Origin: Dehalococcoidia bacterium
GTDB taxonomy: Bacteria; Chloroflexota; Dehalococcoidia; Plut-88900
Assembly: GCA_963668115.1 (NCBI GenBank)
Contig: OY764147.1
Coordinates: forward strand, 1,928,345 to 1,992,344
Reading direction: 5' to 3'
DNA: 64,000 bases
The stretch's first letter is position 1. Each line of letters starts with the position of its first letter. The notes under the pieces are model-generated. The model was not told the DNA's origin. It made no database searches and was given only the letters and a program-made list of their open reading frames with translations. Position numbers and translations under genes: made by a program. Below, piece after piece: positions 4,582 through 48,889 of this stretch.

Positions 4582-4610
4582 TTGCATTGTGATGTGTATG
4601 CCGTCATAAT
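4582..4610 (+). promoter_or_regulatory. Sigma70-like promoter TTGCAT-17-CATAAT upstream of vapBC; ATG at 4617 lies about 7 nt after the -10 (possible leaderless mRNA)
   Basis: Hexamers read directly from sequence; no SD in front of the vapB ATG. Confidence 0.35.
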
Positions 4611-4616
4611 GCCAGC

Positions 4617-4853: not shown

Positions 4854-5413
4854 CTGTTGTCCTTGATTCTTCCGCACTTATCGGAGTCCTTGTGCGTTCG
4901 AGTTCAGGAGGCCTCTGGGCGGCTGGTGTATTGGAAGATGAGCAGATTATAGCGCCCGAAATCCTCTTGTCTGAAACAGCTAACGGATTACGACGTCTAG
5001 AGCTTCAGGGCCACTTGTCAAGTCTGGAAGCCAATGGCGCCTTTGACCGAGTTTGTACGTTGCCAGTTGAGTTACATCCGTTCTCCCCATACGCCGAGCG
5101 GGTCTGGGAACTGCGGTTCAACCTCACCGCCTACGACGCATGGTACGTGGCCATAGCCGAGGCAATGGAGTGTCCCTTGGCCACTCTGGACCTGAGAATG
5201 GCTCGTGCCAGCGGGACGCGGTGTGAGTTCCTGCATCCACCCGACTTTATTGGGAAGGCCCACCCAGTCCCGGTTGAGGTCAAATGTAGCTATTGCCAAA
5301 AGCCTACGAAGGTGTTCCGAGTCCGGACGGCCAACTACTGCTCCCCTTCACATAGAACGTTGGCGTGGAAGAAGCGTAAAGAAGAGGCAATGGCGTCTAG
5401 AGCAGCCACTTAG
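4850..5413 (+). CDS. vapC: PIN-domain toxin (VapC) with a roughly 55-aa C-terminal Cys/His-rich extension (putative zinc ribbon)
   Basis: VLDSSALI and E..D.WY PIN acidic residues; C-terminal CEF...CSYC...YCSPSH spacing; 187 aa versus a typical 130-140 aa. Confidence 0.7.
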   Translation: MTVVLDSSALIGVLVRSSSGGLWAAGVLEDEQIIAPEILLSETANGLRRLELQGHLSSLEANGAFDRVCTLPVELHPFSPYAERVWELRFNLTAYDAWYVAIAEAMECPLATLDLRMARASGTRCEFLHPPDFIGKAHPVPVEVKCSYCQKPTKVFRVRTANYCSPSHRTLAWKKRKEEAMASRAAT

Positions 5414-5439
5414 ACACCCTATCACCTGACCGATATAAT
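5411..5439 (+). promoter_or_regulatory. Sigma70-like promoter TAGACA-17-TATAAT in front of the first LLM gene
   Basis: Perfect -10 at 5434..5439; RBS gagagg 6 nt before ATG 5460. Confidence 0.4.
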
Positions 5440-5459: not shown

Positions 5460-6410
5460 ATGACCAGCAAGCCCCGCATGAAGTTCGGCGTGTCCCTGGG
5501 ACAGGAGCGCGTAACATGGCCGGAGATCGAGGAAGCGGCGATTCTCGTCGAGGAGCTGGGCTTTGACTCTCTCTGGTCTCACGACCACCTGATACCCTCC
5601 GATCCGGGCCGCAACGAGGGGCCGTGCCTGGAGGCGTGGGCGATTCTCGGGGCGTTTGCGAGGATGACGAAGACCGTGACCATCGGGCCGATGGTGGCGG
5701 GGAATACGTATCGCAACCCGGTGCTGCTGGCCAAGTCGGCCACGACTGTGGACATCATCAGCGGAGGCAGGCTGATATTCGGGATCGGGGCGGGGTGGTT
5801 CGAGATGGAGCACACGGCCTACGATTTTCCCTTCTATACCGTCGGAGGGAGGATCAGCCGCCTTGACGAGTCCGTAGAGCTCATCAAGAAGCTGTGGACA
5901 TCGGACGGGCCCGTGGACTTCGACGGCAAGTATTACAACTTGCGGAGCGCCCCCTTCGACCCCAAGCCAACTCAGCAACCCCACCCACCAATCCTCATAG
6001 CCGGGGGCGGTGAGAAACGCACCCTGAGGGTGACGGCCAAGTGGGCCGACATGATGAACATCAACGGCCATGCTCAGATTGCAGCCCACAAATACCGGGT
6101 GCTGGAGGAGCACTGCCGGGCTGTCGGGAGGAACCCTGCCGATATTGTGAAGACCGCCAACGGGGCCTTCGTGCCGCCCGAGAAGATGGACGACTGGAAC
6201 CAGTGGATGGACCGTCTCGCCGAGACCATGCCCGATCAGAGGAAGTCCCGGGGAGAGGGCGGGGTAGTGGGAGACATGGACGTCATCAGGGACTGGGTGA
6301 GGGGTCACGTGGAGGTCGGGACTCAGCATGTCATCTTCACCATGCGTTCTCCGTACCCACTGGAGTCGCTCAGGACCTTCGCCAGAAAAGTGATGCCGGA
6401 GTTCAGATAG
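5460..6410 (+). CDS. LLM-class (luciferase-like) F420/FMN-dependent oxidoreductase
   Basis: 316 aa TIM-barrel LLM signature (DSLWSHDHL, GGRLIFGIGAGW, PKPTQQPHPPILIAGGG). Confidence 0.85.
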   Translation: MTSKPRMKFGVSLGQERVTWPEIEEAAILVEELGFDSLWSHDHLIPSDPGRNEGPCLEAWAILGAFARMTKTVTIGPMVAGNTYRNPVLLAKSATTVDIISGGRLIFGIGAGWFEMEHTAYDFPFYTVGGRISRLDESVELIKKLWTSDGPVDFDGKYYNLRSAPFDPKPTQQPHPPILIAGGGEKRTLRVTAKWADMMNINGHAQIAAHKYRVLEEHCRAVGRNPADIVKTANGAFVPPEKMDDWNQWMDRLAETMPDQRKSRGEGGVVGDMDVIRDWVRGHVEVGTQHVIFTMRSPYPLESLRTFARKVMPEFR

Positions 6411-6420
6411 GAGAAGCGAA

Positions 6421-7584
6421 ATGGCAGCGCCAAGGGACATTCCCTTCCCCGTAGAGGAATACAGGGCCCGACTCTCCGGAGTCCAGGAGCGGATGCGCTC
6501 CCGGGACATCGACGTGCTGCTCGCCTATACGCCGGAGAACATCAACTACCTCACCGGCTACAACACGACGGGCTATTATGTCTACCAATGCCTGATGGTG
6601 CCCGCCGACCGGGACCCGATAATGGTGACCCGGGAGCTGGAGAAGGACAACGTCACCATGGGCACGTGGCTCGACGACTACCGCATATTCGGGGACTCCG
6701 AGGACCCCGTGGCCACGACCTGCGACGCCATCAAGGAGTTCGGGTATGCGGACAAACGCATCGGCTTCGAGTCGACGTCCTGGTTCCTGCAATTGCGGGA
6801 CTACCAGCAGACGGTGTCCCTTCTTCCCAACGCGGAGGTGAAGGATGGAGGCAATATCGTCGAGGAGAACCGGGTCATCAAGTCGCCCCGGGAAATTGCG
6901 TGCATCAGAGAGGCCGCGCGGATAGTGGCGAAGGGGATGCAGTCGGGGATCGATGCTTCCAGGCCGGGAGTCACCGACAACTACGTGGCCGGAGAGCTCA
7001 CCCGCACCCTCTACGCCGAGGGCAGCATCTACTTCGCGGGGCAACCCTACGTGGCCTCCGGCAAGCGGACGGGCAGAGGCCACATAACCTTTGCCAATGT
7101 CACCCTTGAGCCCGGCGACCCCGTATTCTTCGAGATATCCGCCAATGTCAGCCGGTACAGCGCCTCCCTGATGCGCACCATCTCCCTCGGCCCACCCGAC
7201 GACATGGTCAAGAGCGTCGCCGAGGCGTCCATCGCCGGCCTCACGGCCGCGGTGGAGAACATGGGCCCAGGCATGACCTCCCACGACGCCGACGCTTTCT
7301 GCCGCAACGCCATCACCAAGGCCGGATACGGTGAGCTTTTCAACCACCGGACGGGCTACTCCATAGGGGTCGGGTATCCGCCGGGGTGGGGCGAGGGCCA
7401 CATCATGGACATCAAGCCCGGGGACCAGCGGGTACTCAAGCCCGGCATGACCTTCCACCTGACCCCCGCAATACTGATTCCGGGGGTGGCGGGCCCCGGG
7501 TTCAGCGAGACTATCCTGATAACTGATGACGGCGCGGAAGTCCTCACCAATTTCCCCAGGGAGTTCCTTGTCAAGGACGTATAG
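6421..7584 (+). CDS. M24-family metallopeptidase (Xaa-Pro aminopeptidase/creatinase-like)
   Basis: 387 aa; creatinase N-domain plus pita-bread fold with HRTGYSIGVG motif; RBS taggag. Confidence 0.85.
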   Translation: MAAPRDIPFPVEEYRARLSGVQERMRSRDIDVLLAYTPENINYLTGYNTTGYYVYQCLMVPADRDPIMVTRELEKDNVTMGTWLDDYRIFGDSEDPVATTCDAIKEFGYADKRIGFESTSWFLQLRDYQQTVSLLPNAEVKDGGNIVEENRVIKSPREIACIREAARIVAKGMQSGIDASRPGVTDNYVAGELTRTLYAEGSIYFAGQPYVASGKRTGRGHITFANVTLEPGDPVFFEISANVSRYSASLMRTISLGPPDDMVKSVAEASIAGLTAAVENMGPGMTSHDADAFCRNAITKAGYGELFNHRTGYSIGVGYPPGWGEGHIMDIKPGDQRVLKPGMTFHLTPAILIPGVAGPGFSETILITDDGAEVLTNFPREFLVKDV

Positions 7585-7614
7585 CGCCGGGCCGGGCAAA
7601 GGGACGCCTCTCGC

Positions 7615-8565
7615 ATGACTTTCAAAAGGCGCATGGAATTCGGGGGGATGGTCAGCGCGGCCAACGTCTCCTGGCCCGAGTTCCGCCGCATGTGCGAGAC
7701 CGTCGAAGCCCTGGGGTTCGACCACCTCTGGGTCGCAGATCTGCTGACACCCTCGGAAGCCGACTGGTCGGACGGGCCCGTCCACGAATGCTGGAGCTTT
7801 CTCTCCGCGGTGGCTTCGTTCACGGACCGCATACGCATCGGGCCCCTGGTTGTCTCCAACACCTATCGGCACCCGGTCGTCTCGGCTAAGATAGCCGCCA
7901 CAGTAGATATCATTAGCGAGGGCAGGCTGACGTACGGGGTCGGGGCGGGGTGGGCCCGGGAGGAGCACCGTTCCTACGGCATCCCATTCCAGCCCATCGG
8001 GGAGCGAGTGGGTCGGGTGGAGGAGGCCATGCAGCTAACCAAACTGCTCTGGCAGTCCCCGGATCCCGTGACGTTCCACGGTCGGTACTACACCCTGGAC
8101 AACGCCCCGTTCAACCCCAAGCCCGTGCAGAAGCCTCACCCTCCCATCATGATCGCCGGCGGAGGGGAGAAGCTGACCCTCCGCGCCGTGGCGCGGCATG
8201 CAGATGAGATGAACGTATATGGCAGCCCCGAGGAGGTGGCCCACAAGTTCGACGTCCTGAGGAAACACTGCGAGAACGAAGGCCGAGATTTCGACGAGAT
8301 CAAGAAGACGGTACTGGTGCAGATGGTTCCCCCGGAGCGACAGAAGGAATGGGATGAATTCCTGGCCAAGATAGCCGCGGAGGAACCCGAGTTGCTCAAC
8401 CGGGGCCAGAGCCAGGCCATGACCGGGGATGTGGACGACTGGAAGGAGTGGGTGCAGGCTCGGGCGGAGGTGGGCGTAGACCAGGTGATAATCAACCTCT
8501 TTGCGCCCTTTTCCTTTGACTCTATTGAAAGATTCGCCAAAGAGGTAATTCCCACCTTCCGATAG
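7615..8565 (+). CDS. LLM-class F420/FMN-dependent oxidoreductase (paralog)
   Basis: 316 aa; closely parallels 5460..6410 (GPLVVSNTYRHP, PKPVQKPHPPIMIAGGG). Confidence 0.85.
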   Translation: MTFKRRMEFGGMVSAANVSWPEFRRMCETVEALGFDHLWVADLLTPSEADWSDGPVHECWSFLSAVASFTDRIRIGPLVVSNTYRHPVVSAKIAATVDIISEGRLTYGVGAGWAREEHRSYGIPFQPIGERVGRVEEAMQLTKLLWQSPDPVTFHGRYYTLDNAPFNPKPVQKPHPPIMIAGGGEKLTLRAVARHADEMNVYGSPEEVAHKFDVLRKHCENEGRDFDEIKKTVLVQMVPPERQKEWDEFLAKIAAEEPELLNRGQSQAMTGDVDDWKEWVQARAEVGVDQVIINLFAPFSFDSIERFAKEVIPTFR

Positions 8566-8641
8566 AATTGCCCCGCTCGCCGGACGGGGCGACGCGCCGG
8601 TCGCCCCTACAAGTTCAGAAGGGACTCGGAGGAGACGACAG

Positions 8642-9571
8642 ATGACAAAGGTGAAGTTCGGGCCCATCTACACCCGCATTGAAGACCTGATGGGCCCCGT
8701 GGAGCTGGCGGAGAAGTCAGAGTCCTGGGGCTACGATTCCTTCTGGGTGCCCGACTACATCCTCAAACCCCGCCTCGACGCCCTCATCATCCTTGCCGCC
8801 GCCGCCCAACGCACCTCCACCATAGAGTTGGGGACCGCAGTCATGGTGCTTCCGTACAAGGACCCATTGGTCCTTTCCAAGTCGGCGCTGTCCGTTGACG
8901 TGCTTTCCAATGGGCGGCTGCTGCTGGGGGTGGGGATCGGGGCCAACCCGCGAGAGTTTGACGTGCTTGGTCTGGACATCAAGTACAGGGGTCGGGTGTC
9001 CGACGAACGGCTGGACATCATGTCCCGCATCCTGAACGGTGATACCGTCACACACCACGGACGCTTCCACTCATTTGAAGACGTCGCCATAGGCCCGCCG
9101 TCAGTGAGCAAGCCCCGGATCCCGATATGGCTCGGGGCTCATTGCGGGGGCGGCTGGGCCGAGGGCGCCCTCCGGCGCACGGGCCGCTACGGTGACGGCT
9201 TCATACCCACGGAGGCCAGCATCGAGCAGTACAAGGACGCCATGGACCGCATCTCCCGCTACGCCGAAGAGGCAGGCCGGGACCCATCGCAGATCGAATG
9301 GGGCATCTTCATCTTCATCATCATGGAGGACTCCCGGGAATACGCCGAGCGCAAGGGGTTCGCGGAGCTGGCGGATCGGCTGGACCGGGACTACCCGCTG
9401 GTGCACGGTCGGGCGGCGGCTGCGGGGACGGTGGACGAGTGCATCGAAGCTATACAGGCCTACGTGGACATCGGGGTTACGCACTTCATCCTGGACTCGG
9501 CGTCCCCCGCGGAAGAGATCGTCGAACAGTACGAGCGGGCGGCGAAAGAGATAGTGCCGCACTTCCACTAG
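8642..9571 (+). CDS. LLM-class F420/FMN-dependent oxidoreductase (paralog)
   Basis: 309 aa; MTKVKFGP N-terminus shared with other LLM paralogs; RBS ggagga. Confidence 0.85.
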   Translation: MTKVKFGPIYTRIEDLMGPVELAEKSESWGYDSFWVPDYILKPRLDALIILAAAAQRTSTIELGTAVMVLPYKDPLVLSKSALSVDVLSNGRLLLGVGIGANPREFDVLGLDIKYRGRVSDERLDIMSRILNGDTVTHHGRFHSFEDVAIGPPSVSKPRIPIWLGAHCGGGWAEGALRRTGRYGDGFIPTEASIEQYKDAMDRISRYAEEAGRDPSQIEWGIFIFIIMEDSREYAERKGFAELADRLDRDYPLVHGRAAAAGTVDECIEAIQAYVDIGVTHFILDSASPAEEIVEQYERAAKEIVPHFH

Positions 9572-9619
9572 GCCCACCGAAGCCACGCATTGTGGAGTTG
9601 TCCAGGAGACCTGGGAGGG

Positions 9620-10597
9620 TCAGGCCGAGGGCTTGATCCCCCTCACCAAAGGCAGAACTTCCTGAGCGAACCTCTCGTACTGTTCCATCATCCGCTCAGG
9701 GACAACCCCCGCGTTCATCACGAAGTGCGTGACTCCCGCATCGACGTACTCCTGGATCCCCTCTGCACAGTCCTCCGCTCGACCCGACACGTTAGCCTCC
9801 CCACGCACCGCCCTGGTATGGCTCCTCCGCCGGTTGGACTCCGCCTCCAGCGTTTCCCAGGCGCGCTCCGGGTCGTCATCGAGGCAGAACCAGAGCACGG
9901 TGCCGAACTCGATTGCGTCCGGGTCGCGCTTGGCATCTCGGGCGTAGGCGCGTACCTTTTCCCGCACGGCCCTATATTCTGACGCGGGAACCAGGGTGGG
10001 CACGAAGCCGTCCGCCATATTGCCGGCCCTCACGACTGTCGACTCCACGAGGCCGTTTTTCCACAGGGGGCCCATCCAGATCGGGGGGTGGGGCTTCTGC
10101 GCGGTCTCGGGTCCCACCTGCACTCCATCCATCTGATGGAACTTGCCCTTATGGGAGACGTTCTCTCCGGAAAGGAGCTTGCGCAGCAGCATGAGCTTTT
10201 CGTCTGCCATCTTGCCTCGTTCGTGGATGTCGAGGCCGAGGGCGTCGAACTCCCTCTTGTTGCTCCCCACCCCCAATCCCAATATAACGCGCCCGTTGGT
10301 TAGGACGTCCACCGTTGCCACCGACTTTGCCAGCAGCAGCGGATGCCTGTACGGGAGCACCATCACCGCGGTTCCCAGCAGAATATGGTTCGTCCTCTGG
10401 GAGGCAGCGGCGAGAAGGGCAAGGGGGTCGGGGGAGCCGCCGAGGGCGAAGTCGGTGGTCCAGAAGGAGTCGAAGCCTGCGGCCTCGGCGCGGACCGCCA
10501 TGTCGACAGCCTCGGTCGGGTCGTTTATGTGGGAGTGCATTATTCCGAATTTCACGTCAGCAGCATCCTGTCCTAAAGAAAGATAAAGGGCTGGCAC
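9620..10597 (-). CDS. LLM-class F420/FMN-dependent oxidoreductase (paralog); start uncertain (possibly GTG about 10555)
   Basis: 325 aa LLM signature; by analogy with the other paralogs the N-terminus may begin at VKFGIMH. Confidence 0.8.
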   Translation of the reverse strand: MPALYLSLGQDAADVKFGIMHSHINDPTEAVDMAVRAEAAGFDSFWTTDFALGGSPDPLALLAAASQRTNHILLGTAVMVLPYRHPLLLAKSVATVDVLTNGRVILGLGVGSNKREFDALGLDIHERGKMADEKLMLLRKLLSGENVSHKGKFHQMDGVQVGPETAQKPHPPIWMGPLWKNGLVESTVVRAGNMADGFVPTLVPASEYRAVREKVRAYARDAKRDPDAIEFGTVLWFCLDDDPERAWETLEAESNRRRSHTRAVRGEANVSGRAEDCAEGIQEYVDAGVTHFVMNAGVVPERMMEQYERFAQEVLPLVRGIKPSA

Positions 10598-10655
10598 AGA
10601 ATGCCAACCCTTTTCTCATTGTCAGCTAAACCAGGTTGTTTTCGGTGTACCGCCC

Positions 10656-11819
10656 CTACAGATTCGCCACGAACTTCCTTATCCCCTCCACCCCCTTCTC
10701 CAGGTTTTCCATGCTTGTGGCGAAAGATATACGCACAAACCCCTCCCCGTATGCTCCGAAGGAGATGCCCGGGAGCACTGCAACGCCGTTTTCGTAGAGC
10801 AGCCGGTCGCCGAACTCCTGCGCCGAAAGCCCGAGGTCTGACACATTCGGGAAGAGGTAGAAGGCGCCCTCGGGCTTGACGCAGCGGATGCCGTCAATTT
10901 CGTTCAGGGCGTCGCAGGTCATGTCCCTGCGCCTTCGGAACTCCGCAACCATCGCCTGGGGCTCTTCCTTGGAACCCTCCAGGGCCGCAATCCCCGCCTT
11001 CTGGACAAAGGGCGCTGTGCAGGAGACGCTGTTCACCATCAGCTTGGAGATGTGGGGCACCAGCTCCGACGGGAACACCCCGTACCCGAGCCTCCATCCC
11101 GTCATGGCATAGGTCTTCGAAAAGCCGTCCAGGATTACGGAATGTTCCAGCATTCCCGGCAACTGGGCAATGCTGGTGTGAGTGCTGTCGTAGACGATGT
11201 CCCTGTACATCTCGTCGGAGAGGACCAGGATGTCGTTCTCCTTGGCCATATCGGCGACGGCCTCCAGGTCCTCCCTGTCCATCATGCCGCCCGTCGGGTT
11301 GTGGGGAGAGTTGAGGATGATCAGCCGGGTGCGGGAAGTAATGGAGCGCCTCACCTCGTCGAGGTCGGGCTTAAAGCCTTCCTCTTCGTACAGGCGCATG
11401 GGCACGGGCGTAGCCCCCGAGAACTTGATCATCGACTCATAAATCGGGAAGCCGGGGTTCGGGTAGATAACTTCGTCTCCCTCTTCAACCAGGGCAGTGA
11501 GGAGGAAGTACATAATCGGCTTGGCGCCCGGCGTGACAATGATCGAGTCGGGGGAAACGTCAATGCCGCGGGTCTCGGAGGTGTGCTTTGCCACTGCTGC
11601 CCGGACATCGGGTAGGCCGGCTGCGGGCCCGTAGTGGGTGAAGCCTCCGTCAAGAGCGTCCTTGGCCGCTCCGATGATGTGGCCGGGGGTGTCGAAGTCG
11701 GGTTCGCCCAGCTCCAGGTGGACGACGTCGACACCCGTCGCCGCCAGCGCATTGGCCTTGACCAGGACCTCGAACGCGGTCTCGGTGCCCAGGTTGCTCA
11801 TTCTCGAGGCCAGTTTCAT
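10656..11819 (-). CDS. PLP-dependent aminotransferase class I (aspartate/aromatic aminotransferase-like)
   Basis: 387 aa; [16 protein letters not shown]-lysine motif; NSPHNPTG motif. Confidence 0.85.
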
Positions 11820-11953
11820 TTTCCGTGCTCCTCCCGGGACGCAAATGTCATAAATTACAGGCGGGAATTATATCACGGCCACGGTTACATCCATTAAGGC
11901 TTTCAGCTAGAATGACCCCCGACTCCCTACAGCACCCCCAAGAGGTTTGCGCC

Positions 11954-12898
11954 ATGCCCAAAGTCGAATTCGGACCCCTTTACACCACCATGGAGAAGTA
12001 CATCGGACCCGTGGAGTTCGCCGAAAAGGCCGAAGCCTGGGGATACGACTACTACTGGGTGCCCGACTACGTCACGCTTAGCCCCATGGACGCCTTTGTG
12101 CTGCTTTCGGCGGTGGGGCAGAGGACGAACTCCATCAAGTTGGGGACCGCCGTTGTGGTTGTGCCGTTCAGGACGCCCTTCCAGCTTGCCAAGGCCTCGG
12201 CGACGGTGGACGTGTTGTCGGGTGGGCGTTTCACCTTGGGGGTGGGGATAGGGGGCGCCGTGCCCCGGGACTTCGATGTCGCCCAGGTCGACATGCGAAA
12301 GCGCGGCCGCATCTCCAACGAGACCCTCCACATCACCCGCCGCCTCCTCACCGAGGAGAACGTCAGCCACCGCGGCCACTACTATTCATTCGACGACCTT
12401 ACAATCGAGCCACGGCCCGTAAACGACTCCGGGATACCTATCTGGATAGGTTCCATCTGTAACAACGGCTTCCCGCAGGGTGTCGTGGACCGGGCGGCAC
12501 GCTACGGCGACGGATTCTGCCCTACCGACACCCCAATCGAAGAGTTCAAGAAGGTCCAGGAGCGTGTCCGTGCCAGGGCGGCAGAGCTGGGTCGGGACCC
12601 GGACTCCATACAATGGGGCTTGCTGGCCTGGACCTGTGGCGGTAGTTCCAAGGAAGAGGCACGGCAGACGGCGAGCCGAGAGATAAGCAAACGGCTGGAG
12701 TCGGAGTGGGACGTGCAGGCGGACAACGGGTACATTCTCGGGACTCCCGAGGAGATGGCCGAGACCCTTCAGGGCTACGTGGATATTGGGGTGACGAATT
12801 TCGTCGTGGACCCGGCCTGCGCACCGGAAGACATGCTCGAAATGTTCGAGGTCTTCGCGAAAGAGGTCACACCCCACTTCAGGGGCGAAGACAGCTGA
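11954..12898 (+). CDS. LLM-class F420/FMN-dependent oxidoreductase (paralog)
   Basis: MPKVEFGPLY start at ATG 11954 (the longer ORF from 11825 has no LLM-like N-terminus); stop overlaps the next LLM start (ATGA). Confidence 0.8.
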   Translation: MPKVEFGPLYTTMEKYIGPVEFAEKAEAWGYDYYWVPDYVTLSPMDAFVLLSAVGQRTNSIKLGTAVVVVPFRTPFQLAKASATVDVLSGGRFTLGVGIGGAVPRDFDVAQVDMRKRGRISNETLHITRRLLTEENVSHRGHYYSFDDLTIEPRPVNDSGIPIWIGSICNNGFPQGVVDRAARYGDGFCPTDTPIEEFKKVQERVRARAAELGRDPDSIQWGLLAWTCGGSSKEEARQTASREISKRLESEWDVQADNGYILGTPEEMAETLQGYVDIGVTNFVVDPACAPEDMLEMFEVFAKEVTPHFRGEDS

Positions 12899-13848
12899 TG
12901 AGCGAATTGGGATTCGGGGTTACCCTGTTCGACGCGAATGAGAGGCCGGTTATCAAGCAGGGTGTCGACGCAGAGGCATGGGGCTATTCCATCTTCTGGG
13001 CCCCCGAGTTTTTGGGCATCCCCACCCTTGAACCCTTTCCCGTCCTCTCAGCAGTAGCACAGCACACCACCAGCATCAGGCTGGGCACCGGAATAGCGGG
13101 GCTGGCCGTTCGCAGCCCCGTCCAGATGGCCAAGGCCGCAGTCACCACCGACATCCTTTCCAACGGCCGGCTGGTGTTGGGGCTGGGGTTGGGGGGACTT
13201 GTTCCCATCGATCTGGAGGTCGAAGGCATCCCCAATCTCAGGGAACGCGGGCGCATCTCCAATGAGCGCCTCGAAATCCTCTATAGGCTCTTTACCGAGC
13301 GCATCGTTTCCTATTCCGGTGACTACTATGATTTCAAGGACTTTACCCTGGGTCCCGACCCCGTGCAGAAGCCCCGAGTCCCCATCTGGCTCGGGGCACG
13401 GTGGACGGGCAAGATAGCCGATGCTGCCCTCAAGCGCGCCGGGACCTACGCCGACGTCTTCATCTTCCCCGCCGACACCCCAACGTCCTACTATACTTAC
13501 GGCAAGGAAAAGGTCCGGGCCTACGCCGAAGCCGCGGGTCGGGACCCGGACGCCATAGGCTTCGCAAGCACCATGTGGACGTGCCTCGGGCCGTCTCGGG
13601 AGAAGGCAATTGAAGTCGCCGACCGCATCATCCCGGAGATGCTCAGCGTGCCCTGGGTGGTGCCGGACAACGCCTGCTACGGCATGGGCACCCCCGAGGA
13701 CTGCATCGCAACGGTGGAGGAGTTCGCCGAACTGGGTGTATCGCACCTCATCATGAACCCCTGCTGCGATTACGAAGAGGTCACGGCGCAGACCGAGCAG
13801 TTCGGTCGGGAGGTAATATCGCACTTCAAGTCGGGTGATGCCTCGTGA
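12898..13848 (+). CDS. LLM-class F420/FMN-dependent oxidoreductase (paralog; near-duplicate of 13845..14792)
   Basis: ATG 12898 overlaps upstream stop; MSELGFGVTLFD N-terminus; highly similar to the downstream gene. Confidence 0.8.
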   Translation: MSELGFGVTLFDANERPVIKQGVDAEAWGYSIFWAPEFLGIPTLEPFPVLSAVAQHTTSIRLGTGIAGLAVRSPVQMAKAAVTTDILSNGRLVLGLGLGGLVPIDLEVEGIPNLRERGRISNERLEILYRLFTERIVSYSGDYYDFKDFTLGPDPVQKPRVPIWLGARWTGKIADAALKRAGTYADVFIFPADTPTSYYTYGKEKVRAYAEAAGRDPDAIGFASTMWTCLGPSREKAIEVADRIIPEMLSVPWVVPDNACYGMGTPEDCIATVEEFAELGVSHLIMNPCCDYEEVTAQTEQFGREVISHFKSGDAS

Positions 13849-14792
13849 CAATAATGGAGTTCGGGGTTACCCACACCGGGCTAAGTGACCGCTCGCCGGT
13901 GCGGCAGGGCATGGACGCCGAGGCCTGGGGCTACGGCATTTTCTGGGCGCCCGAATTCCTCGCGATTCCGACCCTTGAACCCTTTTCCGTCCTCTCAGCC
14001 GTGGCCCAGCGCACCTCCACTATCAAGCTAGGCACGGGCGTCGCAGGGCTGGCACTGCGCAGTCCATTCCAGCTAGCCAAGGCTGCCATCACCACGGACA
14101 TCCTATCCGACGGACGGCTGGTACTCGGGCTGGGCCTGGGGGGTGTCCATCCCAAAGACCTGGAGGTTGAGGGCATTCCCAACCTGCGGGAACGGGGCCG
14201 GGTCTCCAACGAGAGGCTGGAAATCCTTTACCGGCTCTTCACCGAGAAGAACGTCTCCCACTCCGGCGAATACTACCAGTTCGAGGACTTCACCCTCACC
14301 CCCGACCCCGTGCAAAGGCCCCATGTTCCCATCTGGGTCGGGGCACGGTGGTCGGGCAAGATCTTCGACGCCGCCCTGAAGCGCGCCGGGACCTACGCCG
14401 ACGTCTTCATCTTCCCCGCCGACACGCCGACGGACTACTACCCGGGCGCCAAGGAGAAGATCAGGAAGTACGCCGAAGCTGCGGGCCGGGACCCGGGCGA
14501 TATCCGTTTCGCCTCGACTCTCTGGACTTGTCTTGCCTCATCGCGGGAAGAAGCAAAGGCCATTGCCAACCGTGAGATTACCCGTTCGCTGCAAGTCCCC
14601 TGGGTGGTCCCCGACAACGCCTGCTACGGGCTCGGGACGCCGGAAGACTGCATAGCTACCGTGGAGGAATTCGCAGACCTCGGCGTCTCCCATCTACTCC
14701 TGGCCCCCTGCTGCACTCCCGAAGAGATTACCGCCCAGACGGAGCAGTTCGGCCGCGAAGTCGTATCCCATTTCAAAGGTGATGCCCAATGA
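13845..14792 (+). CDS. LLM-class F420/FMN-dependent oxidoreductase (tandem duplicate)
   Basis: 315 aa; most residues identical to 12898..13848; 4-bp overlaps on both sides. Confidence 0.85.
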   Translation: MTIMEFGVTHTGLSDRSPVRQGMDAEAWGYGIFWAPEFLAIPTLEPFSVLSAVAQRTSTIKLGTGVAGLALRSPFQLAKAAITTDILSDGRLVLGLGLGGVHPKDLEVEGIPNLRERGRVSNERLEILYRLFTEKNVSHSGEYYQFEDFTLTPDPVQRPHVPIWVGARWSGKIFDAALKRAGTYADVFIFPADTPTDYYPGAKEKIRKYAEAAGRDPGDIRFASTLWTCLASSREEAKAIANREITRSLQVPWVVPDNACYGLGTPEDCIATVEEFADLGVSHLLLAPCCTPEEITAQTEQFGREVVSHFKGDAQ

Positions 14793-15718
14793 ACAAAATC
14801 CAGTTCGGACCCCTCTTTTTCCCTACCGAAGAAGGCCCCGAGGCCCTCGAACTCGCCAAAATGGCCGATGACCTCGGGTACGACTACTTCTGGGTCCCTG
14901 ACTACGTGACCCTGCCTTACCTGGACGCCTTCGTCCTGCTGGCAGCAGCCGCCCGGGAGACGAAGAACGTGAGGCTCGGAACTGCGGTGACGCTGGCGCC
15001 TTTCCGGTCGCCCTTCCAGATGTTCAAGGATGCGGCGTCGGTGGACGTGCTTTCGGATGGTCGGCTGACGCTGGGCGTGGGTATCGGCGCCGTGGCCCGG
15101 GACTTCGAGATCGCTCAGGTCGACTTCCGTAAGCGCGGCCGCATCTCCGATGAGTACATCGACATCACCCGACGCCTCTTAGCCGGGGAGCACGTGGACT
15201 ACGACGGTGAGTTCTACAGCTTCCGCGACCTGACTATGGGCCCTCGACCCGTCCAGCAGCCCGTTCCCATCTGGATCGGGGCAAATGGGCAGAGCGGCTT
15301 TCCACCGGGTGTGCTGCGTAGAGCAGGGCGCCTCGGGGACGGCTTTTTCCCCACCGAGACCCCCATCAAGACCTTTATGGAGGCCCAGGCCAGCATCCAG
15401 GAGCACGCCGAGGCCGCAGGCCGCAATCCCGACAACATCGGATGGGGCCTGCTAACCTGGAGCGCCCTGGCCGACAACCGGGAAGAGGGGGTCAGGACGG
15501 CTGAAAGGGAGATCGGGGCCCGGCTGAACAAAGTGCACACGGTGAACCCGGATGCCGGGTACGCAGTCGGGCGGCCCGAGGACATGATCGAGACCATAGA
15601 GTCCTTCGCCAAGATCGGTGTAACCAACTTCGTCATAGATCCCGGATGCCACCCCCGTGACATACGCACCCTCGTCGAGACCTTCGCCAAAGAGGTCATG
15701 CCCCACTTCCGAGATTAG
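14789..15718 (+). CDS. LLM-class F420/FMN-dependent oxidoreductase (paralog)
   Basis: 309 aa; MNKIQFGPLF N-terminus; start overlaps upstream stop. Confidence 0.85.
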   Translation: MNKIQFGPLFFPTEEGPEALELAKMADDLGYDYFWVPDYVTLPYLDAFVLLAAAARETKNVRLGTAVTLAPFRSPFQMFKDAASVDVLSDGRLTLGVGIGAVARDFEIAQVDFRKRGRISDEYIDITRRLLAGEHVDYDGEFYSFRDLTMGPRPVQQPVPIWIGANGQSGFPPGVLRRAGRLGDGFFPTETPIKTFMEAQASIQEHAEAAGRNPDNIGWGLLTWSALADNREEGVRTAEREIGARLNKVHTVNPDAGYAVGRPEDMIETIESFAKIGVTNFVIDPGCHPRDIRTLVETFAKEVMPHFRD

Positions 15719-15745
15719 TGCGCAGTTAAATCCAAGGAGATTGTC

Positions 15746-16726
15746 ATGGCGTTAAAAATAGGAATCCACGCCGGCCCACAGGACTGCTCCTACGAAGACC
15801 TGAAGCGGCTGTGGCACATGGCCGACTCCTCGGGGTTTTACTGGGTCTCGGTCTGGGACCACTTCTACGAGACCCCGGTTATCGACGGCAAGGGCCCCTG
15901 CTTCGAGGCCGTGTCCATCATGACCGCGCTGGCTGCGGAGACGAAGAACGTACGAGTCGGGTGCCTGGTGTTCTGCGTCGGGACCCGGAACCCCGGTCTT
16001 TTGGCTAAGGCAGCTGTCACCATCGACCACGTCAGTAACGGGCGTTTGGAACTAGGAATCGGCTACGGCCCGTGGGGTCCGGAATACGTCGCCTATGGGC
16101 TTGACCTGCCTACAATGAAGGCCCAGATGGACATCCTGGAGGAGGCGGCGCAAATCACCCGCTCCATGCTCCACAACGGGACCACCAGCTTCCAGGGTAA
16201 ACATTTCCAGATCGAAAATGCCCACGTCTACCCCCGACCTATCCAGGACCCCCCGAGGCTGTGGATAGCGGGCATAGGAGAAAGGCGCATTCTGCCAATG
16301 GTCGCCCGCTACGCCGACGGCTGGAACGCCACTTACATCCCCGACGCGGCCTTCAAGTCCAAGAACGAGCTGTTGAACAGGCTATGTGAGGAGCAGGGTC
16401 GGGACCCGGCGGAGATCGCCCGTACCTGCAACGTAGGCTTCTACATGGGCGCCGACGAAAAAGCCGCCCAGCGAAAGCGTCGGGAGTTCGAGGAGAAATG
16501 GGGTCGGGGGGAGGCGGGTCCCGACGACGCGAAATACGACAAAGACCGGGACTACCTGGCGGAGTTCGAACAAGGGATGATCTTCGGCACCGCCCAGAAC
16601 GCCATCGAGCGGCTCGGGAGTTTGCAGGAGTCGGGGGCGGACCAAGTCAACATCTCCGTCCGCGCCCCCTTTGACTGGGAGGGGTTGCAGGCCTTTGTGG
16701 AGGAGGTCATTCCAGCGTTCAGTTGA
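15746..16726 (+). CDS. LLM-class F420-dependent oxidoreductase (more divergent paralog)
   Basis: 326 aa; RBS aaggaga; LLM fold motifs (PRLWIAGIGERR). Confidence 0.8.
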   Translation: MALKIGIHAGPQDCSYEDLKRLWHMADSSGFYWVSVWDHFYETPVIDGKGPCFEAVSIMTALAAETKNVRVGCLVFCVGTRNPGLLAKAAVTIDHVSNGRLELGIGYGPWGPEYVAYGLDLPTMKAQMDILEEAAQITRSMLHNGTTSFQGKHFQIENAHVYPRPIQDPPRLWIAGIGERRILPMVARYADGWNATYIPDAAFKSKNELLNRLCEEQGRDPAEIARTCNVGFYMGADEKAAQRKRREFEEKWGRGEAGPDDAKYDKDRDYLAEFEQGMIFGTAQNAIERLGSLQESGADQVNISVRAPFDWEGLQAFVEEVIPAFS

Positions 16727-16746
16727 GTTGCCCTACGGTGACACCT

Positions 16747-16959
16747 ATGAATAGGGCCGATAAAGCGGAAATCACATTCATAGTCAGCGTCGACGAACTG
16801 GACGGTGGCTATTCTGCTAGCGCCTTGGAGTTTGGCATCCATACCCAGGCCGACACGCTTGACGAGCTGCACTACAACATGGCAGAGGCCGTCGAGTGCT
16901 ACTTTGATGATGGGCAGGCATTGCCGCGGATTCGGGTAACTACGGATATTCCAAGTTAA
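16747..16959 (+). CDS. HicB-like / UPF0150-family small antitoxin-like protein (no adjacent HicA)
   Basis: 70 aa from ATG 16747; ITFIVSVDELDGGYSASALEFGIHTQADTLDE pattern typical of HicB N-domain. Confidence 0.5.
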   Translation: MNRADKAEITFIVSVDELDGGYSASALEFGIHTQADTLDELHYNMAEAVECYFDDGQALPRIRVTTDIPS

Positions 16960-29635: not shown

Positions 29636-30606
29636 ACCAGCGGCACAATCTCTTCCGCAAACCGCTCTATCTGCTCCCGCTGGTACTCCCCAGACGCCGA
29701 TCCCCGGTAACTGAAGTCCAGCAGGAGGTGGTCTACGCCCGCGTCGAAAAAGGCCCTGACCCTCTCTGCGCAAGATTCCGGGGATCCGACGATGGTCATG
29801 TCCTCCGGCTGTACCCCCGACGCCGTCAGGCGTATGCACTGCCGCAGCTGGGGGACGACCTCGGTCTCCACCTTGCTTTCGTCGTCGACGATGGCGACGA
29901 AGTTCATCAGGCTTATCTTCAGGGAGGCACCCGCCCTGTCGTTCTCCGCCTCAATTGCCGGGATCCACTGCTCCCTAATCTCTTCGACGGGCATGGGAGC
30001 GGGCAGAATGTGGGTGGCGTACTTCGCTGCCCTGGGTATGGAGGGCAGGCCGCCGCCGTACCAGATGGGCGGGTAGGGTTTCTGGACGGGTTTCGGGTCA
30101 AGGGTTACGTCTTCAAGCTGGTAGTAGCGGCCGTTGTGCGTCACGCCGTCCTCCGTCCAGAGTCGGGTGATTAGCTCCATCTGCTCGTCCGTGACCCGGG
30201 CCCTGCGGCGGTGGTGCTCCTCCGCACCGGCCATGTGGAAGTCGCCGGGCGACCAGCCCATGCACATCCCCGGTATGAGGCGACCTCCTGAGATCACGTC
30301 GATGGTCGAGAGGTTCTTGGCCCAGAAGTAGGGCGGAAGCACGGGGAGGATGAGCGAGTGAATGCCGAGCCGCAGCTTCTTGGTGACTGCGAACAGGGCC
30401 GGGAGCAGGGCGAGGGGGTCGAAGAGATGGTGGCTGCCGAAGCGGTCGAACATGGGGGCGTGGGGCAGGGTCATGTGGTACGGAAACCCCGCCGAATAGA
30501 ACCCCAGCCGGTCAAGCTGTTGTACCACGTCCGTTAGAGATTCCATGGTGGGGGGCGTCGCGCCCCAACCGTAAATGTACGCGCTGAACCTGCTCATGTC
30601 GGCCAT
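29632..30606 (-). CDS. LLM-class F420/FMN-dependent oxidoreductase (10th paralog)
   Basis: 324 aa LLM pattern (PKPVQKPYPPIWYGGG); RBS aaggtgga; stop overlaps the FAD oxidase stop region. Confidence 0.8.
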   Translation of the reverse strand: MADMSRFSAYIYGWGATPPTMESLTDVVQQLDRLGFYSAGFPYHMTLPHAPMFDRFGSHHLFDPLALLPALFAVTKKLRLGIHSLILPVLPPYFWAKNLSTIDVISGGRLIPGMCMGWSPGDFHMAGAEEHHRRRARVTDEQMELITRLWTEDGVTHNGRYYQLEDVTLDPKPVQKPYPPIWYGGGLPSIPRAAKYATHILPAPMPVEEIREQWIPAIEAENDRAGASLKISLMNFVAIVDDESKVETEVVPQLRQCIRLTASGVQPEDMTIVGSPESCAERVRAFFDAGVDHLLLDFSYRGSASGEYQREQIERFAEEIVPLV

Positions 30607-30700: not shown

Positions 30701-30904
30701 CTAGGCCCGGGCCTTCATCCTCTCCGACAGCATCTCGCCGCCCATGGCCCAGTGCTCGCCCACCGTCTCCGTGATGATGACGTGCACCGATTCCGCCGAG
30801 GGGGTGCCTGCGATGTTGACCATGGCGTCGGTCATCGCCTTCACCAGGTCGGACTTCTGGTCTTCGCTCCTGCCGGGCAGCATTTCGACTCTAACTATGG
30901 GCAT
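30701..30904 (-). CDS. 4-oxalocrotonate tautomerase family protein
   Basis: MPIVRVEMLPGRSEDQK with Pro1 after Met; about 67 aa; GGAGG RBS 6 nt upstream of the second ATG. Confidence 0.75.
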   Translation of the reverse strand: MPIVRVEMLPGRSEDQKSDLVKAMTDAMVNIAGTPSAESVHVIITETVGEHWAMGGEMLSERMKARA

Positions 30905-30978
30905 AACCATCCTCCTTCACGCATTGGGACTCTCAGGGTTGGGAACGCGAAGATATTATCAGTACGGGCCGAACGGCG

Positions 30979-32352: not shown

Positions 32353-32422
32353 TGTGCAGATGTCGTGTGGTAAGGGACTCGGGGACTCTACTCGGGTCAA
32401 GGGCTATAATACCGCTCAAACC

Positions 32423-33390: not shown

Positions 33391-33399
33391 CTTACCTCC

Positions 33400-43090: not shown

Positions 43091-43093
43091 GTC

Positions 43094-48384: not shown

Positions 48385-48520
48385 CTGAATCTCTCCTCCG
48401 ATGCCGATGTTAAGCGTCCCTTTCTCGCAGTGTCAACCGCGCCGGATACACTCTCAGGATGACAAGTTAATCACAGCCTGTTAGATTGCTCTCAACGACA
48501 CGTTGAAGAGAATTACGGAC

Positions 48521-48889
48521 ATGCTCAATCCCAAAGTCCGGGAAGCCCTCGAAAAAGACCTCGTCATCGACATCACCACCACGGGCCGCAAGAGCGGCCA
48601 GCCCCGACGCGTCGAAATCTGGTTCCATAACCTGGATGGCATCCTCTACATCACCGGTCTCCCCGGGACCCGAGGTTGGTACGCCAACATCCTCGCCGAC
48701 CCCCGTATGACCTTCCACCTCAAAGAAACTACAGCAGCCGACCTCCCCGCCCGCGCCACCCCCATCACCAACGTCGAGCAAAAGCGTGACATCCTCCGCC
48801 GCATCTGCACCAAGCAGGGCACCTTGGAACAACTGGAGGCACGGGTCTCCGGCGCCCCGCTCATCAAGGTAGATCTCGTTCACGATTAG
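48521..48889 (+). CDS. Deazaflavin (F420)-dependent nitroreductase-family protein (Ddn/DUF385-like)
   Basis: DITTTGRKSGQPRRVEIWFHNLDGILYI split-barrel motif; ATG 48521 preferred over the upstream TTG. Confidence 0.7.
   Translation: MLNPKVREALEKDLVIDITTTGRKSGQPRRVEIWFHNLDGILYITGLPGTRGWYANILADPRMTFHLKETTAADLPARATPITNVEQKRDILRRICTKQGTLEQLEARVSGAPLIKVDLVHD

Follow-up and report, generated by a model that had tools for sequence, protein, structure and literature searches.

A conserved array of nine luciferase-like oxidoreductase genes, most of them resembling F420-dependent enzymes, in a Dehalococcoidia bacterium

Expansion of luciferase-like monooxygenase (LLM) genes is a described trait of SAR202 bacteria. 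Five partial SAR202 genomes were found to carry 152 FMNOs together with an expansion of CaiB/BaiF (Landry et al. 2017, PMC5395668), and both FMNO and CaiB/BaiF are likewise enriched in sponge SAR202 (Bayer et al. 2018, PMC6306507). The COG2141 paralogs occur chiefly in SAR202 groups II and III, with many copies already placed in an 'F420-dependent' branch (Saw et al. 2020, PMC6946804). Landry et al. and Saw et al. give genome-wide counts, and a term search of their texts indicates that a fixed tandem array is apparently undescribed in them. Outside this phylum, 45 luciferase-like hydride transferases (LLHTs), a group of F420-dependent enzymes, are predicted in M. smegmatis (PMC8498797).

The array reported here is a single locus-level case of the LLM (COG2141, 'FMNO') expansion known from SAR202-type Dehalococcoidia. 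It lies in a 64-kb stretch of DNA (the window) from a genome of roughly 3.0 Mb. The MnmG of the contig, which is 89-90% identical to that of complete-chromosome MAGs labelled 'Dehalococcoidia bacterium' and whose remoter matches are all Chloroflexota, places the contig in the class Dehalococcoidia, in agreement with the phylum expected in the first-pass annotation. None of the sequence matches carries a SAR202 label, and JGI metagenome contigs essentially lack the lineage (best M24 match 47%). The locus shares with the SAR202 expansion the PF00296 superfamily, the bacterial class, and many deeply diverged paralogs. It also shares the co-occurrence of a CaiB/BaiF-type CoA-transferase, a Rieske protein, amidohydrolases (two) and MFS genes (three), all listed earlier for this window along with a GMC oxidoreductase and all present. 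What differs from the published genome-wide counts is the organization as a nine-copy syntenic block with a hydrolase and an aminotransferase, conserved in relatives.

Ten full-length genes match PF00296 (Bac_luciferase, Pfam; E 1e-41 to 1e-60), each over approximately profile positions 2-311. Nine lie within 5460-16726, interrupted by two other genes, and one lies at 29632-30606, which is the number and placement previously proposed; this tenth copy ends a run of genes on the minus strand:

5460..6410, plus strand: LLM1, 316 aa, clade A (Rv1855c-type); PF00296 E 3e-44; TIGR03560 256 bits, cut-off 231
6421..7584, plus strand: M24/Creatinase_N hydrolase (PF00557 and PF01321)
7615..8565, plus strand: LLM2, 316 aa, clade A; TIGR03560 250, cut-off 231; TIGR03619 170, cut-off 167
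8642..9571, plus strand: LLM3, 309 aa, clade B (Rv2161c-type, Mer-like); TIGR03619 188, cut-off 167
9620..10597, minus strand: LLM4, ORF of 325 aa, clade B; TIGR03619 191, cut-off 167
10656..11819, minus strand: class I/II (aspartate-type) aminotransferase, upstream of LLM4; PF00155 E 1e-72
11954..12898, plus strand: LLM5, 314 aa from the corrected start, clade B; TIGR03619 175, cut-off 167
12898..13848, plus strand: LLM6, 316 aa from the corrected start, clade B; TIGR03619 143.5, under the cut-off of 167
13845..14792, plus strand: LLM7, 315 aa, clade B; TIGR03619 152, under the cut-off of 167
14789..15718, plus strand: LLM8, 309 aa, clade B; TIGR03619 196, cut-off 167
15746..16726, plus strand: LLM9, 326 aa, divergent within clade A; TIGR03560 213, under the cut-off of 231
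29632..30606, minus strand: LLM10, 324 aa, PF00296, separate lineage
30704..30916, minus strand: tautomerase, between the amidohydrolase and LLM10
30979..32400, minus strand: amidohydrolase, first in the run that ends with LLM10

Most likely LLM5 starts at 11954 and LLM6 at 12898. The true start of LLM4 is probably near 10555, giving 311 aa, the length of its gene calls in two relatives (L026, L027). LLM genes make up 75.6% of the 5460-16726 interval, and their density, nine in 11.3 kb, compares with one in about 390 kb of Chloroflexota DNA around MnmG (L001-L020); the clustering is far above chance expectation. An HMM built from the ten LLMs and run against all six-frame ORFs of the window with a length of 70 aa or more recovered exactly those ten, and no fragments, pseudogenes or further copies. 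The first-pass annotation had made its reading depend on intact paralogs and a Chloroflexota marker gene; all ten copies are intact and the marker belongs to that phylum, so its core reading stands.

Pairwise identities among the LLMs range from 24 to 76%, and the array copies fall into two old clades, A (LLM1, LLM2, LLM9) and B (LLM3 to LLM8). LLM1 and LLM2 are 46% identical. That the paralogs are old and diverged was thus rightly suspected, but the claimed recent, near-identical tandem pair is old as well: LLM6 and LLM7 share 76% protein and 74% DNA identity with a saturated dS of about 1.1, and their sole near-identical segment is one exact 47-nt run. Two supposedly common motifs also need revision. 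KxxFGP is present in three copies only (LLM3, LLM5, LLM8), and PKPxQxPHPPIxxGG occurs in none as an exact string, a looser P-x-P-x-Q-x-P-x-x-P-I being what the proteins have in common.

At least four other assemblies carry the entire block, matched gene for gene (synteny at L021, L022, L024, L025/L026 and L027), with one-to-one positional orthologs of the array LLMs at 77-98% identity. LLM1 is 84% identical to its ortholog in L022 and 94% to that in L025 (dN/dS 0.07), the LLM3 orthologs are 94-98% identical (dN/dS 0.035), those of LLM9 93-97%, and LLM6 has 83% identity to its positional ortholog in L022, compared with 79% to the neighbouring paralog. For LLM8 dN/dS is 0.02-0.05, and over all array LLMs it spans 0.02-0.12, in line with the neighbouring purB (0.04-0.05). 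The embedded genes are conserved too, the M24 protein at 90-96% identity (dN/dS 0.04-0.06) and the aminotransferase at 95-98% (dN/dS 0.01-0.02). Purifying selection keeps all nine array copies, and every duplication took place before this lineage parted from relatives with an MnmG identity of just 81%. The gene-for-gene recurrence, the one-to-one orthologs and the low dN/dS therefore identify the array as an old selected unit passed on gene for gene, and a recent or ongoing expansion is rejected. In L022 an LRR gene lies within the array; the window also contains one.

From spacing and consensus matches, the block appears to comprise three transcription units: LLM1, M24 hydrolase, LLM2 and LLM3 (plus strand); aminotransferase and LLM4 (minus strand); and LLM5 to LLM9 (plus strand). 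The LLM5 stop and LLM6 start overlap by one base (TGATG) and LLM7 overlaps both LLM6 and LLM8 by 4 nt, which implies co-expression; gaps are otherwise 10-76 nt. Candidate signals are as follows:

5411..5439, plus strand: sigma-70-like candidate promoter, consensus match TAGACA-17-TATAAT (11/12), 20 nt upstream of LLM1
10585..10613, minus strand: putative terminator or attenuator-like hairpin by pattern match, 13 bp followed by a T-rich tail, between aminotransferase and LLM4
11884..11913, plus strand: weaker promoter-like match (9/12) in the divergent region between aminotransferase and LLM5

With respect to the cofactor, the best NCBIfam match is an F420-labelled LLM subfamily for nine of the ten LLMs, and database homologs are annotated as 'LLM class F420-dependent oxidoreductase'. 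Curated F420-labelled cut-offs are passed by six (TIGR03560 by LLM1 and LLM2, TIGR03619 by LLM2 to LLM5 and LLM8) and remain out of reach for LLM6, LLM7, LLM9 and LLM10. We know of no characterised member of these two subfamilies, so no substrate can be transferred to the array LLMs, nor are we aware of mycobacterial LLHTs reported to form a nine-gene array. The actinobacterial LLHTs of TIGR03560 (Rv1855c) and TIGR03619 (Rv2161c) belong to another phylum but resemble the copies here in the short TIM barrel (about 310-330 aa) and the multi-paralog lifestyle.

The closest solved structures are Mer for clade B and Adf, Fgd1 and FGD2 for the LLM1 model. All three clade B proteins queried have F420-dependent Mer as nearest PDB entry (LLM8 2e-32, LLM4 6e-23, LLM7 7e-21). 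For clade A, F420 and FMN enzymes cannot be told apart by sequence similarity to PDB entries, and the top match is 3rao, a putative Bacillus cereus LLM; this species is not known to make F420. An AlphaFold2 model of LLM1 (pLDDT 94.8) gave the best Foldseek TM-scores with Adf, Fgd1 and FGD2 (0.83-0.84), a small difference from the 0.75-0.79 of FMN enzymes. A His of LLM1 aligns with the catalytic His (Adf His39, Fgd1 His40), and a Trp occupies the position of the catalytic Glu (Fgd1 Glu109, Adf Glu108); LLM1 is therefore not an Fgd- or Adf-type catalyst. The array LLMs are not orthologs of Mer, Adf or Fgd1 (LLM8 scores 124 bits on the Mer equivalog with a cut-off of 349, and the Fgd family model gives at most 97, cut-off 210) and therefore have different substrates. 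One gene outside the array is relevant to the organism's cofactor use:

48485..48886, plus strand: small Ddn/FDOR-A-type gene (F420H2-dependent quinone reductase family); PF04075 35.5 bits, gathering score 22; TIGR00026 42, narrowly under the cut-off of 46.35

In view of these matches, the majority of array copies look like F420 hydride transferases and not like oxygen-inserting monooxygenases. We consider it rather probable that the locus is a block of nine functional genes for TIM-barrel flavin/deazaflavin oxidoreductases, located on the chromosome and inherited vertically, and most or all of these enzymes would use F420. With nine of ten LLMs matching F420-labelled subfamilies best and F420 an obligate hydride carrier (PMC6279831), oxygen insertion, by which SAR202 FMNOs are proposed to attack recalcitrant organic matter, is not the likeliest chemistry of the array. 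The SAR202-like picture drawn earlier fits in the expansion of the family. According to the published reading of the SAR202 expansion (PMC5395668; PMC6306507), the copies would be two-component monooxygenases that depend on FMNH2, of the type II Baeyer-Villiger, alkanal or alkanesulfonate kind, and with a flavin reductase encoded elsewhere they would oxygenate organic matter that is recalcitrant and alicyclic or sulfonated. The clade A match to 3rao, the four LLMs under the F420 subfamily cut-offs and the nearest structures of LLM10 are in its favour, but for the array we find it doubtful. For all ten LLMs the FMN-labelled NCBIfam models fall well short of their cut-offs (maxima: SfnG 104 against 383, SsuD 76 against 518, NtaA/DmoA 67 against 280), which leaves the type II Baeyer-Villiger reading unsupported for these copies, and F420-labelled models score 1.8-3 times higher for nine of them. 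The proximity of clade B to Mer, the Ddn-type gene in the window and the protein lengths, 309-326 aa versus 355-421 aa for the matched FMN-dependent monooxygenase chains, also argue against it. No flavin reductase was found among the scanned ORFs of the window, but this is weak evidence because two-component flavin reductases are often encoded away from their partner. LLM10, which forms its own lineage and belongs to another operon, may itself be FMN-dependent: its best PDB matches are all FMNH2-dependent (SfnG 1.4e-19, MsuD, SsuD), and it stays under all NCBIfam cut-offs (TIGR03619 141, cut-off 167; SfnG 104, cut-off 383).

Two further explanations concern the use of the array. Coupled neighbours (LLM6/LLM7 or LLM5 to LLM8) could pair like LuxA and LuxB, with one subunit catalytic and the other structural, since two adjacent paralogs make up the bacterial luciferase heterodimer; the 1-4 nt overlaps joining LLM5 to LLM8 and the gene order and pairing kept in all relatives would suit this. 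The likeness to LuxA/LuxB, adjacent paralogous LLM genes in one operon, is one of arrangement only, the LuxA model scoring at most 59 bits here against a cut-off of 600. Core motifs are conserved in all ten LLMs with no evidently degenerate copy, constraint is similar on all copies, and characterised LLMs are, to our knowledge, mostly homo-oligomers. Such pairing is highly improbable, and the gene data give no sign of heterodimers or light emission. Alternatively, the block could be a secondary-metabolite tailoring cluster and not catabolic, its F420 LLMs reducing the imines or enones of a product derived from amino acids, in the manner of the 4-alkyl-L-proline, lanthipeptide and thiopeptide pathways. 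F420-dependent LLHTs are indeed frequent in biosynthetic clusters (PMC8498797), the block is co-oriented and tightly conserved, and the aminotransferase scores 343 bits on the model of the guanitoxin cyclodehydratase GntC. This score is, however, below the cut-off of 415, no PKS, NRPS, RiPP precursor or maturase, terpene cyclase, transporter or regulator lies within the block, housekeeping genes flank it (purB passes TIGR00928), and nine redox paralogs for a single product would be unprecedented, so that a biosynthetic role seems barely plausible.

If most or all nine array LLMs act as F420-dependent hydride transferases and not as O2-activating FMNH2 monooxygenases, they would reduce or dehydrogenate C=O, C=N or C=C bonds, the paralogs probably widening the range of one pathway across related small substrates. 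The M24 hydrolase is related to ectoine hydrolase (DoeA-like) without being an equivalog, with 333 bits over its full length on NF038259 (ectoine_DoeA_2; cut-off 575), and the aminotransferase meets no NCBIfam cut-off (aspartate aminotransferase 360 against 550, besides GntC). Embedding of these two genes, with their putative specificities, suggests substrates that contain nitrogen, for instance cyclic amidines, amides or amino compounds, which would be opened, next transaminated and finally oxidised or reduced. The nearest outgroup LLM (54% identity, L023) sits amid amidases and a class III aminotransferase.

The window further resembles sponge SAR202 in its LLM and CaiB enrichment and in its LRR gene, eukaryote-like repeat proteins such as LRR being regarded as symbiont features (PMC6306507). 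This is only a hint of a host-associated origin of the contig.

Ten open reading frames in the window match the luciferase-like family PF00296 (Bac_luciferase), with E-values of 1e-41 to 1e-60 and scores of 142–203 bits at a gathering score of 27.9 bits. They lie exactly where the first-pass annotation had placed them, nine within 11 kb (LLM1 to LLM9, the array) and a tenth at 29.6 kb (LLM10). Pfam also identifies the two genes reported as interleaved with the array, an M24 peptidase-type protein and an aminotransferase. The neighbours named at first pass are all present: a CaiB-type CoA transferase, a Rieske protein, amidohydrolases, a GMC oxidoreductase and MFS genes, three of which are found in the window. 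The genes are:

5460–6410, plus strand, LLM1 (PF00296)
6421–7584, plus strand, M24/Creatinase_N protein, interleaved in the array
7615–8565, plus strand, LLM2 (PF00296)
8642–9571, plus strand, LLM3 (PF00296)
9620–10597, minus strand, LLM4 (PF00296)
10656–11819, minus strand, class I/II aminotransferase, interleaved in the array
11825–12898, plus strand, LLM5 (PF00296)
12706–13848, plus strand, LLM6 (PF00296)
13845–14792, plus strand, LLM7 (PF00296)
14789–15718, plus strand, LLM8 (PF00296)
15746–16726, plus strand, LLM9 (PF00296)
23192–24736, GMC oxidoreductase
29632–30606, minus strand, LLM10 (PF00296)
30979–32400, minus strand, amidohydrolase
37340–38653, CoA_transf_3 (CaiB-type) protein
41696–42982, Rieske protein
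48976–50142, amidohydrolase

The most likely starts of three genes were corrected relative to the open reading frames: LLM5 to 11954 (MPKVEFGP), LLM6 to 12898 (MSELGFG), and LLM4, by comparison with 311-aa orthologs, to near 10555. LLM coding sequence accounts for 75.6% of 5460–16726. A profile of the ten LLMs, searched against the 447 six-frame ORFs in the window that are 70 aa or longer, returned the same ten and no extra copies. No fragments or pseudogenes were detected by this search, since each of the ten covers the whole profile (positions about 2–311); the concern that most paralogs might be fragments is thereby settled, all ten being full-length. Only a single LLM gene occurs in about 390 kb of Chloroflexota DNA around MnmG (L001–L020), versus nine in 11.3 kb here, and the clustering is therefore not due to chance. 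The array is a real feature and the picture drawn at first pass is broadly right.

From the sequence we infer three transcription units. The first, on the plus strand, comprises LLM1, M24, LLM2 and LLM3, separated by gaps of 10, 30 and 76 nt, with a strong sigma-70-like match ahead of LLM1 at 5411–5439 (11/12). The second, on the minus strand, contains the aminotransferase followed by LLM4, with a 13-bp hairpin and T-rich tract between them (10585–10613). In the third, on the plus strand, LLM5 and LLM6 overlap by 1 nt (TGATG), LLM6/LLM7 and LLM7/LLM8 each overlap by 4 nt, and LLM9 follows after a 27-nt gap; a weaker promoter-like site precedes LLM5 at 11884–11913. All three sites are consensus matches only. 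The stop/start overlaps from LLM5 to LLM8 imply translational coupling.

The window carries genes for ProA, ProB, a purB-type lyase and MnmG (53309–55366, minus strand). The MnmG protein is 89–90% identical to that of complete MAG chromosomes (3.0–3.4 Mb) of 'Dehalococcoidia bacterium', 78–81% to further Dehalococcoidia MAGs and 67% to a 'Chloroflexota bacterium' MAG. Lower values were obtained with a Lake Baikal Dehalococcoidia MAG (58%), an Anaerolineales MAG (53%) and Chloroflexia MAGs (48–50%). These stepwise identities support placement in the Chloroflexota, class Dehalococcoidia, so that an origin of the contig outside the phylum, one of the doubts attached to the earlier reading, is not supported. 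Membership of SAR202 and a marine source found no confirmation: a SAR202 label was not found among the MnmG and LLM homolog matches, and the 64-kb window contains no rRNA or tRNA. ENA and Logan assemblies contain many close relatives (L021–L027), but none turned up among 241 million JGI metagenome records scanned with the M24 protein (L028–L043), where the best match was 47% identical. This points to a habitat that is little sampled by JGI. No usable mention in papers was found for the related accessions OZ241876, OZ220734, OY760104, CBDBLV01, ERZ250..., SRR13587050/54, SAMN17524321 and GCA_034421055; the sample label 'NGUY21-1' may come from a metagenome study of sponges.

Long contigs carry the nearest homologs of LLM7, and the neighbourhoods of these homologs repeat the array gene for gene. 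The conserved order is PRTase, (FitA/PIN), LLM, M24, LLM, LLM, LLM (minus), aminotransferase (minus), then five LLMs, purB (minus), RelB, RidA and glyoxalase. The whole order occurs in at least four relatives (L021, L022, L025/L026 and L027), and the five-gene part in L024. L022 comes from a 4.99-Mb contig with an MnmG only 81% identical to that of the window, and still has a positional one-to-one ortholog for every array gene:

Identity of array genes to their positional orthologs in L022
LLM1, 84%
M24, 90%
LLM2, 77%
LLM3, 94%
LLM4, 79%
aminotransferase, 95%
LLM5, 88%
LLM6, 83%
LLM7, 82%
LLM8, 93%
LLM9, 93%

In a neighbour-joining tree the LLM sequences cluster by position and not by genome, with some blurring of positions 6 and 7 in L022. 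All nine duplications are therefore older than the divergence from that relative, in line with the old duplications proposed at first pass. Pairwise protein identities among the ten LLMs are 24–76%. Two old clades can be distinguished, clade A with LLM1, LLM2 and the divergent LLM9, and clade B with LLM3 to LLM8. The dN/dS ratios of the nine array LLMs against L025, L022 and L024 are 0.02–0.12. These values resemble those of purB (0.04–0.05) and of the embedded M24 (0.04–0.06) and aminotransferase (0.01–0.02) genes, and selection thus maintains every copy. The dN/dS values and the full profile coverage together rule out pseudogenisation of the LLMs. The array is thus an old, conserved unit.

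A recent tandem duplication of LLM6 and LLM7, described earlier as a near-identical pair, does not survive this analysis. They are the closest pair, with 76% protein and 74% DNA identity, but dS is about 1.1, which is saturated, and both have orthologs in relatives. The sole trace of recent exchange is an exact run of 47 nt (13432–13478 in LLM6, 14379–14425 in LLM7). A short gene-conversion tract could account for this run, which agrees with the blurring between LLM6 and LLM7 orthologs in L022. The sequence motifs said to be shared by the paralogs held up in part: 'KxxFGP' is present in LLM3, LLM5 and LLM8 only, and none of the ten LLMs matches PKPxQxPHPPIxxGG exactly, while a looser form, P-x-P-x-Q-x-P-x-x-P-I-W/L-x-G, is common to them.

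Acquisition of the array as a horizontally transferred island can be dismissed. Its GC content (0.60–0.63) is no different from that of the flanks, there is no tRNA, synteny is conserved, and the block is chromosomal and adjoins a purB that passes TIGR00928. The association of its genes is lineage-specific. The nearest LLM6/7-type homolog at greater distance (54% identity, in the outgroup locus L023) is a singleton amid amidases and a class III aminotransferase. Via M24 the array could not be traced to deeper relatives, because the 39–48% identical M24 relatives in JGI metagenome contigs have no LLM neighbours.

Two irregularities were seen in the relatives. In L021 (ERZ25069412 ctg851519_13x_l, 13x coverage) several array genes between 5765 and 9049 are broken into two or three pieces, among them pairs of 195 + 92 aa and 244 + 104 aa. 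Assembly indels, not genuine pseudogenes, are the most likely cause, because the genes are intact in the other assemblies. In L022 a minus-strand gene with a faint LRR match (6442–7473) is inserted in the array between LLM4 and the aminotransferase.

The top NCBIfam match of all ten LLMs is an F420-labelled LLM subfamily. LLM1 (256 bits) and LLM2 (250) exceed the cut-off of TIGR03560 (Rv1855c type, 231.4 bits), and LLM2, LLM3, LLM4, LLM5 and LLM8 (170–196) that of TIGR03619 (Rv2161c type, 166.9 bits). The others stay below, LLM9 with 213 versus 231 for TIGR03560, and LLM6 (143.5), LLM7 (152) and LLM10 (141) versus 167 for TIGR03619. None of the ten reaches the cut-off of any FMN-labelled model (SfnG, SsuD, NtaA/DmoA, RutA, LuxA, MupA type, 2I7G type); the highest scores are 104 versus 383 for SfnG (with LLM10), 76 versus 518 for SsuD, 67 versus 280 for NtaA/DmoA, 58 versus 498 for RutA and 59 versus 600 for LuxA. 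The equivalog cut-offs for Fgd, Mer, SsuD, SfnG, LuxA and RutA are all missed by wide margins, which eliminates these specific identities.

Among solved structures, the closest matches of the clade B queries are F420-dependent methylene-H4MPT reductases (LLM8, 2e-32; LLM4, 6e-23; LLM7, 7e-21). For clade A the PDB sequence matches are mixed (3rao, Adf, Fgd1, FGD2 and Mer, E 2e-12 to 2e-18), and this similarity does not discriminate F420-dependent from FMN-dependent relatives. An AlphaFold2 model of LLM1 (pLDDT 94.8, pTM 0.92) gave Foldseek top matches that all have the LLM fold, a (β/α)8 TIM barrel, with TM scores of 0.74–0.84. The modelled structure resembles Adf, Fgd1 and FGD2 (TM 0.83–0.84, rmsd 3.0–3.3) slightly more than the FMN-dependent MsuD, SfnG and luciferase (TM 0.74–0.79), a preference for F420 enzymes that is small and not decisive. 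LLM1 keeps a histidine aligned with His39 of Adf and His40 of Fgd1, and has a tryptophan at the position of the catalytic glutamate of Fgd and Adf, from which it follows that LLM1 is not an Fgd- or Adf-type enzyme.

A second type of F420-associated enzyme, of unrelated fold, is encoded in the same 64 kb. The small ORF at 48485–48886 (plus strand) belongs to the Ddn/FDOR-A family, scoring 35.5 bits with PF04075 (F420H2-dependent quinone reductase; gathering score 22) and 42 bits with TIGR00026, just under its cut-off of 46.35. It is easily missed because longer opposite-strand ORFs without a family match overlap it. Its presence suggests that the organism uses coenzyme F420. About 76 ORFs of the window were scanned and no NAD(P)H:flavin reductase was detected; such partner genes can sit elsewhere in a genome.

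F420-dependent LLMs form one clade derived from FMN-dependent ancestors, and F420 is an obligate hydride carrier (Mascotti et al., PMC6279831, where binding was assayed by fluorescence quenching). Luciferase-like hydride transferases reduce ketones, imines and enones, or dehydrogenate alcohols or sugar phosphates (PMC8498797). In view of the F420 family assignments and the obligate hydride chemistry of this cofactor, the nine array enzymes most likely catalyze F420-linked hydride transfer and not O2 activation. The oxygenase chemistry implied at first pass is probably wrong for the array, as F420-labelled subfamilies match best and FMN models score far below their cut-offs.

LLM10 differs from the array LLMs in its sequence affinities. 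Its closest solved relatives are all FMNH2-dependent (SfnG, 1.4e-19, then MsuD and SsuD), and no NCBIfam cut-off is reached. It ends a minus-strand run of amidohydrolase (30979–32400), tautomerase (30704–30916) and LLM10, and an ortholog is found elsewhere in a close relative (L007). Convergent to it, with a 4-nt overlap of the gene ends, lies a plus-strand gene (26720–29635) for a 971-aa fusion of a GlcD-like FAD-linked oxidase and a 4Fe-4S/GlpC-like part, distantly similar to the D-2-hydroxyglutarate dehydrogenase YdiJ (612 bits versus a cut-off of 1350).

Clues to the substrates come from the accompanying genes. The M24 protein matches the model for ectoine hydrolase DoeA type 2 along its whole length, at 333 bits versus a cut-off of 575, and by this score is related to DoeA but no equivalog. 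The aminotransferase is aspartate-type and reaches no cut-off. In all relatives, purB is followed by genes for RidA and a VOC/glyoxalase protein. Taken with the amidase-rich surroundings of the L023 homolog, the accompanying genes weakly suggest that the array acts on nitrogen-containing small molecules. A more specific possibility, which we consider rather unlikely, is that the nine-gene block encodes one co-regulated, O2-independent pathway for nitrogen compounds. The substrates of a battery of F420 hydride transferases would be related small molecules containing nitrogen, such as cyclic amidine or osmolyte-type compounds, the ectoine-hydrolase-like M24 enzyme would open a ring or amide, and the aminotransferase would act in the same pathway. 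The organism may belong to a host-associated Dehalococcoidia lineage, and some translationally coupled neighbours might act as hetero-oligomers. If this pathway exists, much of the SAR202-like 'FMNO' hallmark would represent deazaflavin redox chemistry instead of Baeyer–Villiger oxygenation.

The hypothesis that SAR202-type Dehalococcoidia oxidize recalcitrant dissolved organic matter leans heavily on LLM ('FMNO') expansions. To our knowledge, neither a substrate nor a verified cofactor has been assigned to any enzyme from such expansions. Five partial SAR202 genomes contain 152 FMN/F420-dependent monooxygenase paralogs, most of them read as type II Baeyer–Villiger monooxygenases, and a CaiB/BaiF expansion (Landry et al., PMC5395668). 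COG2141 paralogs occur mainly in SAR202 groups II and III, most of them in the alkanal and 'F420-dependent' branches (Saw et al., PMC6946804), and sponge-associated SAR202 show the same enrichment (Bayer et al., PMC6306507). The window resembles the expansion of Landry et al. in having ten deeply diverged paralogs (24–76%) in 64 kb and a CoA_transf_3 gene at 37340–38653. What it adds to these accounts is the conserved block, the signs of selection and the attribution of most copies to the F420 type. The terms 'tandem', 'operon' and 'synten' are not used in PMC5395668 and PMC6946804 (term search), and a conserved tandem array apparently was therefore not described there. The array extends the known pattern of LLM expansion and is no new kind of system. 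Nine paralogs from two old clades, all under purifying selection, keep a fixed order here together with a hydrolase and an aminotransferase; the locus thus offers a compact experimental handle, and several complete or long assemblies contain it. Should the enzymes bind F420, as their family assignments suggest, they would transfer hydride rather than insert oxygen, and the family signal in ocean and symbiont metagenomes would have to be read differently.

Some other features of the window deserve mention. At 38724–38918 (plus strand), between the CoA transferase and a leucine-rich-repeat gene that both lie on the other strand, there is a full-length match to the actinobacterial sRNA Ms_IGR-5 (Rfam RF02471; 58.8 bits, E 1e-12, gathering score 45). 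It terminates in a GC-rich hairpin and U tract, and its family would not be expected in a Dehalococcoidia genome. The leucine-rich-repeat gene (38999–40072, minus strand) encodes a eukaryote-like protein, a type that has been brought up in connection with symbiosis in sponge Chloroflexi (PMC6306507). Defence and toxin–antitoxin genes are unusually many (371–1636, 4593–5413, 16746–16956, 18426–19043, 21284–21652, 33094–33702, 43052–43730 and 55436–55708). McrBC, PIN, RelB and HicB are Pfam-supported, and FitA, a RelE/YafQ-like gene, a second HicB-like gene, two HigB/HigA-like genes and DUF4258 were assigned by visual inspection or from the synteny in relatives.
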